DNA of 64,000 nucleotides, from assembly GCF_055900595.2 (NCBI RefSeq), contig NZ_CM148325.1; one strand, written 5' to 3'. The first letter of the stretch is position 1, and each line of letters opens with the position of its first letter. A program made the translations under genes and the position numbers. The notes beneath the pieces were generated by a model. That model was not told the DNA's origin. It did no database searches and was given only the letters and a program-made list of their open reading frames with translations. Below, piece by piece: positions 56,216 to 56,925 of this stretch.

Positions 56216-56500
56216 TTAATGGGAGGCAAGTTCCCGGAAAAAGGCAGGATTTTCTTTAATTGTGGCAAGTACTTTTGCAGCCAATCCCGTAGGATTTCTT
56301 CGCTTCGATTCCCAGCTTTTAATGGTATCCACACTGGTTCCCAGAGCTTTTGCCATCTCACTTTGCGAAACGTTGAGTTGCTCACGAATAGCTTTAACAT
56401 CCGCAATTTCGTAGCGGGTCACCCGTGCAGGTTCTTTTAAACCTTGTTTAATCTCGACAGCCTCTTCCAGAGAGGTTTTCAACTCATCAAAAAAACTCAT
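56216..56500 (-). CDS. XRE-family HTH antitoxin (HigA-like) of a type II toxin-antitoxin pair
   Basis: 94-aa frame MSFFDELKTSLEEAVEIKQG...VKAIREQLNVSQSEMAKALGTSVDTIKSWESKRRNPTGLAAKVL with HTH; ATG lies 1 nt after the toxin stop with GGTGAGG Shine-Dalgarno (ORF track uses an upstream GTG). Confidence 0.7.
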   Translation of the reverse strand: MSFFDELKTSLEEAVEIKQGLKEPARVTRYEIADVKAIREQLNVSQSEMAKALGTSVDTIKSWESKRRNPTGLAAKVLATIKENPAFFRELASH

Positions 56501-56501
56501 T

Positions 56502-56834
56502 TTATACCTCACCTTTGAGCAGTTTCGTCAACTTCTTTAGTTGAGCTTTTTCCGTATCTGTCAGACTGTCTTTGGCATTCTTCGGATAGGCCATAATCAA
56601 ATAAATAATCTCTTCCGTCGCCAGAAAGTAAATTATTCTGACACTACCACTTTTTCCCTGTGAACCCGCAGCCATTCGGACTTTACGCAATCCACCAGTC
56701 TGCTGAATGAGATCACCTTTATCGGGAGTTCCGATGAGTTCTTTTTGCAATTCCTTTAATTCATCATCGGTTGCAATCTGCTTGATCTGACGCGTAAACA
56801 TTGGCGTCTCTATAAATATTATCGCCTTGCCCAT
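56502..56834 (-). CDS. RelE/ParE-superfamily toxin (HigB-like) of a type II toxin-antitoxin pair
   Basis: 110-aa frame MGKAIIFIETPMFTRQIKQ...GGLRKVRMAAGSQGKSGSVRIIYFLATEEIIYLIMAYPKNAKDSLTDTEKAQLKKL typical of HigB-2-type toxins encoded upstream of their antitoxin; start set at the ATG with GGGAGGGG Shine-Dalgarno. Confidence 0.7.
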   Translation of the reverse strand: MGKAIIFIETPMFTRQIKQIATDDELKELQKELIGTPDKGDLIQQTGGLRKVRMAAGSQGKSGSVRIIYFLATEEIIYLIMAYPKNAKDSLTDTEKAQLKKLTKLLKGEV

Positions 56835-56850
56835 TACCCCTCCCTGGCAG

Positions 56851-56883
56851 GTACATTGTACACCAAAATGGAGTACTAAGTAC
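56851..56883. promoter_or_regulatory. Pair of GTAC-core palindromes upstream of the toxin gene (candidate antitoxin operator)
   Basis: gtacaTtgtac (56851..56861) and gtactAagtac (56873..56883), centres 22 bp apart, inside the 91-bp gap between the nadR stop and the toxin start. Confidence 0.35.
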
Positions 56884-56925
56884 ACTTTTGAATCAGTAAT
56901 ATCACTCAACATCTTATAAAGATGA

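Follow-up and report, generated by a model that had tools for sequence, protein, structure and literature searches.

The 64,000-nt stretch of E. coli DNA analysed here (contig NZ_CM148325.1, hereafter the window) harbours between nadR and ettA a pair of genes that very probably forms a chromosomal operon encoding a type II toxin-antitoxin system of the HigB-2/HigA-2 type, with an antitoxin from the family that NCBI calls NadS. The HigB-2/NadS pair is a known kind of system from a structurally and biochemically characterised family, and both genes are already annotated. Modestly new are a NadS-type operator consensus and the identity of the 'nadS' ORF of K-12.

Both strands of the locus were read. 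The toxin ORF runs on the minus strand from the ATG at 56834 to the TAA at 56504..56502 and nadS from the ATG at 56500 to its stop at 56216, with the single base 56501 separating the toxin stop from the nadS ATG. The stop codon of nadR ends at 56926, which leaves a gap of 91 bp (56835..56925) to the toxin ATG, while ettA lies on the plus strand, ends at 56160 and is convergent with the pair. The ORFs, their 1-nt spacing, the 91-bp gap and the palindromes within it had been described in an earlier note on this DNA, and all were recovered at the same positions on the minus strand, as was the toxin-first, antitoxin-second order typical of HigBA modules. Longer ORF starts (136 aa and 98 aa) were rejected, because the homologues begin at positions matching the 110-aa and 94-aa starts. 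The features of the locus are as follows.

56502..56834, minus strand: HigB-2-type toxin gene, 110 aa, labelled 'type II toxin-antitoxin system RelE/ParE family toxin' in RefSeq (WP_000513551.1); from translation, PF06296, PDB HigB-2 and RefSeq
56216..56500, minus strand: nadS, HigA-2-type antitoxin gene, 94 aa, labelled 'nadS, NadS family protein' in RefSeq (WP_000007436.1); from translation, NF041265, HTH_3 and profile alignment with VcHigA-2
56849..56863, no strand assigned: candidate operator O1 (proximal), core GTACATTGTAC at 56851-56861, gene strand GGTGTAC-AAT-GTACC
56871..56885, no strand assigned: candidate operator O2 (distal), core GTACTAAGTAC at 56873-56883, gene strand GTGTAC-TTA-GTACTC
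56855..56884, minus strand: candidate sigma-70 promoter, from a hexamer scan
56837..56844, minus strand: Shine-Dalgarno sequence of the toxin gene, GGGAGGGG, read from the sequence, ending 2 nt before the ATG
56507..56513, minus strand: Shine-Dalgarno sequence of nadS, GGTGAGG, read from the sequence
56171..56202, no strand assigned: REP-like hairpin between the convergent ettA and nadS, from RNA folding

The location of the nadS Shine-Dalgarno sequence within the last toxin codons, together with the 1-nt gap, suggests that translation of the two genes is coupled. On the other side of the pair, RNA folding of the hairpin on the nadS strand yields -20.9 kcal/mol (z of -2.98), followed by AUUUU, and this element is probably a terminator common to ettA and nadS. 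Additional REP copies are present in the ettA-nadS interval of K-12 and AVS0171. Rfam gave no match to an RNA family in 56100-57000.

The toxin matches PF06296 in Pfam (E of 5.9e-10, residues 13-106), with a weak second match to Gp49 (PF05973, E of 0.0013), and phrog_5869 with an E of 7.7e-29. Its best matches in the PDB are all structures of V. cholerae HigB-2 (5ja8, 5ja9, 5jaa and 8a0x, E about 7.5e-17), which cover residues 6-102 of the 110 (97 residues). The RelE/ParE-superfamily call made earlier thus holds and can be narrowed to the PF06296/HigB-2 branch, the one named in the HMM check that was then proposed. In a survey of the superfamily, members of PF06296 are variously named RelE, HigB-2 or StbE (PMC11980606). 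The active site of VcHigB2 comprises Arg51, Arg64, Tyr82 and Lys84, and alanine substitutions at these positions cause a 170- to 3000-fold loss of activity (PMC5416850). All four residues are retained in the E. coli toxin as R53, R66, Y83 and K85, respectively, in the pairwise alignment as well as in an alignment of 19 family members including VcHigB2, where they are among the 23 invariant columns; the first three residues of VcHigB2 in this alignment were entered by hand and the rest taken from the PDB match, which leaves the result unaffected. Based on this homology we infer that the toxin would be a RelE-fold ribosome-dependent mRNA endonuclease.

Other identities for the toxin were rejected. 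No NCBIfam model names it, the sole match being to Crn1 and far below threshold (16.9 bits vs a cutoff of 125), and the PADLOC defence-system models return weak CARF and generic HTH matches only (E above 1e-3); a Crn1 ring-nuclease or CARF identity was dismissed as spurious low-complexity or fold noise, and these models give no sign of a catalogued anti-phage defence system. Membership in the Rts1-type HigB family (PF05015 / PF09907) was also rejected, as neither profile is among the Pfam matches of the toxin. As judged from its sequence, the pair is 'HigBA' by gene order and HigB-2 homology and falls outside the Rts1 HigB family.

The 94-aa protein matches the NCBIfam equivalog NF041265 'NadS' over positions 1-94 of 94, with 182.6 bits vs a cutoff of 60, and Pfam HTH_3 with an E of 6e-10, which places an XRE-type HTH at residues 35-79. 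Like the toxin, it also matches a PHROG family. With the single sequence as query, the best match in the PDB is VcHigA-2 (E of 2e-6), limited to the HTH region, while a family profile built from 20 NadS sequences of different genera aligns full-length, with positions 3-92 falling onto VcHigA-2 residues 6-102 (E of 3.6e-9). The XRE-HTH antitoxin call of the earlier note is thereby upheld by the HTH_3 match, the HigA-2 homology and the equivalog. In the N-terminal part, FFDELKTSLEEAVEIKQG aligns with residues 6-23 of VcHigA2, LFAELSSALVEAKQHSEG. A peptide comprising residues 3-22 of VcHigA2 alone is sufficient for toxin neutralisation (PMC5416850), and the stretch aligned with FFDELKTSLEEAVEIKQG falls within this peptide. 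NadS can thus be inferred to consist of an N-terminal toxin-neutralising segment and a C-terminal XRE-HTH domain. Its putative recognition helix, GTS-x-DTIKSWE-x-(K/G)RRNPTG, is near-invariant among the related loci.

The two genes also belong together in other genomes. Of 55 related loci that could be analysed, about 42 have a NadS-like gene directly downstream of the toxin gene, adjacent to it or overlapping it, including every locus with an intact 110-112-aa toxin. Most of the remaining loci have a truncated toxin ORF or a 115-aa variant of the toxin next to which automated searching detected no antitoxin.

By analogy with its homologues, the operon would work as follows. The toxin would cut mRNA in a ribosome-dependent manner at codons in the ribosomal A site, and the N-terminal segment of NadS would fold onto the toxin and neutralise it. 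NadS is expected to dimerise via its C-terminal XRE helix-turn-helix, and comparative footprinting suggests that the dimer binds both imperfect palindromes, GTGTAC-N3-GTAC(A)C, which are two helical turns apart. Since the palindromes overlap the likely -10 and -35 hexamers, the operon would repress itself. Once NadS is degraded or its synthesis stops, the toxin would be set free and halt translation, following the general logic of type II systems.

The starts of the two palindromes are 22 bp apart, which leaves an interval of 11 bp, and the palindromes are the only matches to GTACNNNGTAC in the 64-kb window. In shuffled sequences 0.35 matches are expected per 64-kb window, and at least two matches anywhere occur in 3 of 100 shuffles; two matches within one named 91-bp gap are far rarer than this. 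The repeat search reported no inverted repeats, because the arms are 5 bp long, and recovered the pair as a direct repeat at a distance of 22 bp.

We then compared the upstream regions of related loci, 57 of which were found in a scan of one genome per species, in Serratia, Enterobacter, Pectobacterium, Xenorhabdus, Photorhabdus, Halomonas/Vreelandella, Thioalkalivibrio and others. From each, the 130 bp upstream of the toxin start were extracted. GTAC-N3-GTAC is present in 42 of the 49 non-E. coli upstream regions, 27-53 bp before the toxin start codon. Among 48 distinct sites all eight GTAC positions are invariant, while variation is seen at the three spacer positions and in the outer flanks, and the consensus reads GGTGTAC-wwT-GTACaC. 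Paired sites 20-22 bp apart, as in E. coli, are found in Serratia (L004, L015, L018), in Enterobacter (L010) and in L006, and L051 has two sites 42 bp apart. Upstream regions without the site comprise a locus with a mutated half-site (L012), two 5'-truncated genes (L048, L049), a distant homologue that has another antitoxin (L055) and three loci in which the GTAC site has moved to just upstream of nadS (L017, L019 of Lelliottia, L050). In the UTI89 allele, which is 97% identical, both palindromes are unchanged while five nearby intergenic bases differ.

These palindromes could in principle have arisen by chance, reflect promoter-shaped sequence or be the site of another protein. GTAC is self-complementary, so that any two GTACs 7 bp apart give an 11-bp 'palindrome'; the conserved T at spacer position 3 creates TACnnT, which resembles a -10 element; and the geometry is unlike that of the proven Vibrio operator. 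We nevertheless consider it unlikely that the palindromes are anything other than NadS operators. Across 312 kb of related loci 51 of the 56 occurrences of GTACNNNGTAC fall within the 130 bp upstream of a toxin start, and the GTACs do not vary among Enterobacterales, Halomonadaceae, Thioalkalivibrio and others although the surrounding sequence cannot be aligned. This is further supported by L023, L045 and L051, where a clear TTGACA -35 is recognisable and the site fills the spacer between the -35 and -10 elements, a classic position for a repressor, and by the three loci in which the site, when missing upstream, reappears before nadS. Thus, there is strong comparative support for the GTAC palindromes being the pattern left by a protein-binding operator. 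The candidate autoregulatory operator put forward in the earlier note gains accordingly in standing, as conservation of GTAC-N3-GTAC upstream of homologous modules in many genera is what autoregulation would predict.

Such an operator accords with experimental findings in Vibrio. VcHigA2 footprints a single inverted repeat, TGTACGC-N5-GCGTACA, which begins downstream of the -35 element and reaches across the -10 (PMC11006873). Mapping this operator onto the E. coli sites was rejected, as the inner GTAC pair is 15 bp apart compared to 13 in Vibrio and three of the four base-contacting residues differ (VcHigA2 R68, E71 and N72 correspond to D58, K61 and S62 in NadS, while R77 is kept as R67). 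N3 contrasts with N5 between longer arms. With different half-site spacing and different base-reading residues, the operator is not simply transferable from Vibrio.

A lax hexamer scan proposes a promoter with TGTACT at 56884..56879 as -35, an 18-nt spacer and TACAAT at 56860..56855 as -10, each hexamer lying within one palindrome. The -35 is weak, with 3 of 6 consensus matches. A standard promoter and terminator scan, whose threshold this candidate does not reach, returned nothing in the 91-bp gap, and its total was no better than in shuffles. The sigma-70 promoter at 56855..56884 is the best candidate in the gap, and only a guess; transcription of the toxin gene and nadS may alternatively come by read-through from nadR.

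To the earlier note the pair had looked like a strain-specific module. A presence/absence survey does not bear this out: the toxin gene with its upstream gap is intact in 673 of 5,426 complete E. coli genomes (about one in eight), including UTI89 and clone D i2. All copies are chromosomal and single-copy, with 96.7-100% identity in all but one, and in UTI89 the module has the same neighbours, nadR and ettA. K-12, where the note knew of no genes between nadR and ettA, is not an empty site either. Directly after the nadR stop it retains the last 8 toxin codons, the ribosome-binding site of nadS and ~36 codons from the start of that gene; the remnant then runs into REP sequence, which gives a 55-aa ORF, and PGAP flags it as a nadS pseudogene. 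The same junction is found in 3,771 of the 5,426 genomes, mostly at 90-95% identity. Further states of decay are seen in HS-02, with a frameshifted nadS and a degraded toxin gene, in THO-008, where a stub without ATG lies beside an inserted gene block, and in AVS0171, where the module is wholly absent and only REP elements are left. Since the stubs hold pieces of both genes, the intact module predates them and is ancestral within E. coli and now being lost. The module is dispensable, because most E. coli lineages have lost it.

In BW25113 the K-12 nadS ORF has been reported as expressed by PIRT-seq, its identity not being given (PMC12350097, 2025). The locus, whether intact or as a K-12-type stub, might conceivably serve as an 'anti-addiction' element that counters related modules on plasmids. 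The 55-aa stub keeps exactly the first 22 NadS residues, which are homologous to the neutralising VcHigA2 peptide, and its ORF is located 33 nt downstream of nadR. Toxins of ~80% identity are found on small enterobacterial plasmids, where 18 of the first 20 residues of the NadS partner are the same, and a mini-antitoxin disarming incoming HigB-2 toxins would explain the spread of the stub. Most stubs have, however, drifted in sequence, some have no start codon and others are deleted outright, a pattern that looks like neutral decay, and we regard an anti-addiction role as quite unlikely. Selection on the K-12 stub was rejected on the same data, which favour neutral decay (drift and start-codon loss).

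The decay-prone state of the locus could also mean that the pair in the window is itself an inert relic, i.e. that the toxin has ceased to poison and both genes are heading towards pseudogenes as in most E. coli, of which the numerous K-12-type remnants and the further decayed states in HS-02, THO-008 and AVS0171 would be examples. Against this, the window and 672 other genomes have the two ORFs intact, at an identity that most remnants, by contrast, have lost, and the four catalytic residues are all kept. Compared to UTI89, the toxin gene carries six synonymous changes and one conservative non-synonymous change (V110I) and nadS two synonymous and no non-synonymous changes. The excess of synonymous changes together with the untouched operators indicates that purifying selection acts where the module is intact, and we hold the relic reading to be very unlikely.

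The claim that the module was inserted between nadR and ettA needs to be split. As a recent gain in this strain it does not stand, while further back it does, since no related locus in other genera adjoins nadR or ettA and the nadR/ettA synteny is not shared. Toxin homologues are present on 889 plasmid records, with Acinetobacter plasmids as the largest group (306 of 889), and a few are found in phage records. The closest plasmid homologues are 82% identical and reside on ~5-kb plasmids of Yersinia ruckeri, Citrobacter, Pectobacterium and Hafnia. Most likely the module came from a small plasmid or other mobile element into the nadR-ettA gap of an early E. coli ancestor, and was later deleted or eroded in most lineages.

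It is hardly credible that NadS works mainly as an independent transcription factor, such as one of NAD metabolism, and the upstream ORF an accessory protein rather than a toxin: the gene name, the position beside nadR, the resemblance of the C-terminal HTH to many non-antitoxin XRE regulators and the GTAC site before nadS alone in three related loci would fit such a role, but the name reflects position only and the pair never adjoins nadR in other genera, NadS is regularly paired with a PF06296 gene, its N-terminus matches the toxin-neutralising helix of HigA-2, and the GTAC motif occurs nowhere else in the 64-kb window.

As a discovery the toxin-antitoxin operon itself matters little, given that hundreds of E. 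coli genomes already carry RefSeq labels for the two genes. In the literature searched we found no mention of 'NadS family protein', of WP_000513551.1 or WP_000007436.1, or of a nadR-yjjK toxin-antitoxin module, and the only mention of nadS found in a search on NadS and toxin-antitoxin systems was the PIRT-seq note on K-12 (PMC12350097). The ORF reported there as expressed is the N-terminal stump of the NadS antitoxin. The comparison of upstream regions provides a testable NadS-type operator consensus, GTGTAC-N3-GTACAC, often duplicated 20-22 bp apart, which is unlike the only HigA2-operator complex with a solved structure both in its spacing and in the residues that read it. In addition, the series of intact module, shared deletion stub, start-codon loss and complete loss at one chromosomal site is usable for studies of toxin-antitoxin loss.

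Among known systems, E. coli MqsR/MqsA has the same toxin-first order, and the HTH of NadS weakly resembles the C-terminal domain of MqsA (TIGR03830 with an E of 1.2e-9, below cutoff, and Pfam MqsA_antitoxin with an E of 6e-4). In contrast to MqsA, NadS lacks an N-terminal zinc-binding domain, nor does the toxin resemble MqsR. HigB/HigA of Proteus vulgaris Rts1, the founding 'HigBA', is likewise toxin-first and combines a ribosome-dependent mRNase of the RelE superfamily with an HTH antitoxin. Its toxin, however, belongs to PF05015 (PMC11980606), a profile without a match in the E. coli toxin, and its antitoxin differs in architecture and mode of neutralisation (PMC5416850). HigB2/HigA2 of A. 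baumannii pAB120 is of the same family by name, but is plasmid-borne and more distant in sequence (in the under-60% band). There, the toxin is reported to be a ribonuclease, the promoter is repressed by the antitoxin and more so by the complex, and the module stabilises plasmids (PMC5906591).

The closest relatives are the modules of the ~5-kb plasmids and of loci L007, L008, L013 and L020-L022. Their toxins are about 80% identical, their antitoxin is a 94-aa NadS with the same recognition helix, and GTAC-N3-GTAC is located 34-37 bp before the start codon. They differ from the E. coli module in being plasmid-borne and in having a single operator instead of two.

A further characterised system is V. 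cholerae HigB-2/HigA-2 (VCA0468/0469; 5JA8, 5JAA, 5J9I, 8A0X), which cleaves translating mRNA and stabilises plasmids (PMC5416850, PMC11980606). Its PF06296 toxin has about 39% identity to the E. coli toxin and the same four catalytic residues, the gene order is toxin-first, and VcHigA-2, built like NadS, combines an N-terminal neutralising helix with a C-terminal XRE-HTH dimer. TGTAC motifs are found at the Vibrio promoter and at the candidate promoter of the E. coli module, in E. coli as GTGTAC-N3-GTACAC present twice and in Vibrio as the single TGTACGC-N5-GCGTACA. Compared to VcHigA-2, the linker of NadS is 10 residues shorter and three of the four base-reading residues differ. While the Vibrio module resides in the superintegron, the E. 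coli module lies in the core chromosome, between nadR and ettA.

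The nadS of the K-12 lineage is a 55-aa open reading frame that starts 33 nt past the nadR stop codon and consists of NadS residues 1-36 followed by a tail derived from a REP element. Judged by homology to VcHigA-2, the part of the antitoxin retained in this stub is exactly the predicted toxin-neutralising helix. The K-12-type stub junction is found in 3,771 of the 5,426 complete E. coli genomes searched, mostly at 90-95% identity, and expression of K-12 'nadS' has been reported in BW25113 (PMC12350097). The stub and further features of the nadR-ettA gap map as follows:

L001 2618-2785 (E. 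coli K-12 lineage): K-12 'nadS' stub, counterpart in the window at about 56390-56530
Window 56171-56202: REP-like hairpin (-20.9 kcal/mol, z -3) in the interval where ettA and nadS converge
Window 56907-56921: perfect 15-bp palindrome CATCTTTATAAGATG, a few bases past the nadR stop codon
L063 1-2377 (E. coli THO-008): inserted block of genes for an aldo/keto reductase, an SDR oxidoreductase, an SRPBCC protein and a DUF1471 protein

Additional REP copies occupy the ettA-nadS hairpin interval in K-12, EC11 and AVS0171, where they stand in place of the 3' part of nadS or of the entire module. This replacement suggests that erosion of the module was driven by REP-associated rearrangement. The palindrome CATCTTTATAAGATG is missing in the K-12 version of the gap and thus belongs to the module side.

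In THO-008 the inserted gene block follows a nadS stub, at the position otherwise held by ettA; rearrangement has therefore recurred in the nadR-ettA gap.

Among the related loci, those of Lelliottia nimipressuralis, an Enterobacter MAG and Pseudenterobacter timonensis (L019, L017 and L050) carry the LexA-box-like sequence CTGTATATAAATACAG upstream of the homologous toxin gene. Here the GTAC-N3-GTAC site, the candidate NadS operator, lies directly upstream of nadS instead of before the toxin gene and falls within the 3'-terminal part of a toxin reading frame that has a C-terminal extension. In the first of these loci the two elements are located at:

L019 2888-2903: LexA-box-like sequence
L019 3352-3362: GTAC-N3-GTAC site

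In these three enterobacterial loci the toxin may be SOS-induced and the antitoxin autoregulated separately.

Modules approximately 80% identical to the enterobacterial ones are also present on contigs L006, L020 and L021, labelled as Butyricicoccus, Rhodobacteraceae and 'Proteobacteria' MAGs. The upstream sequence of L020 and L021 closely matches L022, a 5.5 kb Yersinia nurmii contig. All three are probably mis-binned small plasmids, the labelled taxa not being their true hosts.

Compared with the NCBIfam models, NadS matches NF007481 / PRK10072 ('HTH-type transcriptional regulator') over nearly its whole length (window 56216-56500, at the protein level), with a score of 47.7 bits (E 1.6e-12) that does not reach the cutoff of 110. 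This sub-cutoff match hints at an orphan family of NadS-like paralogues in enterobacteria.
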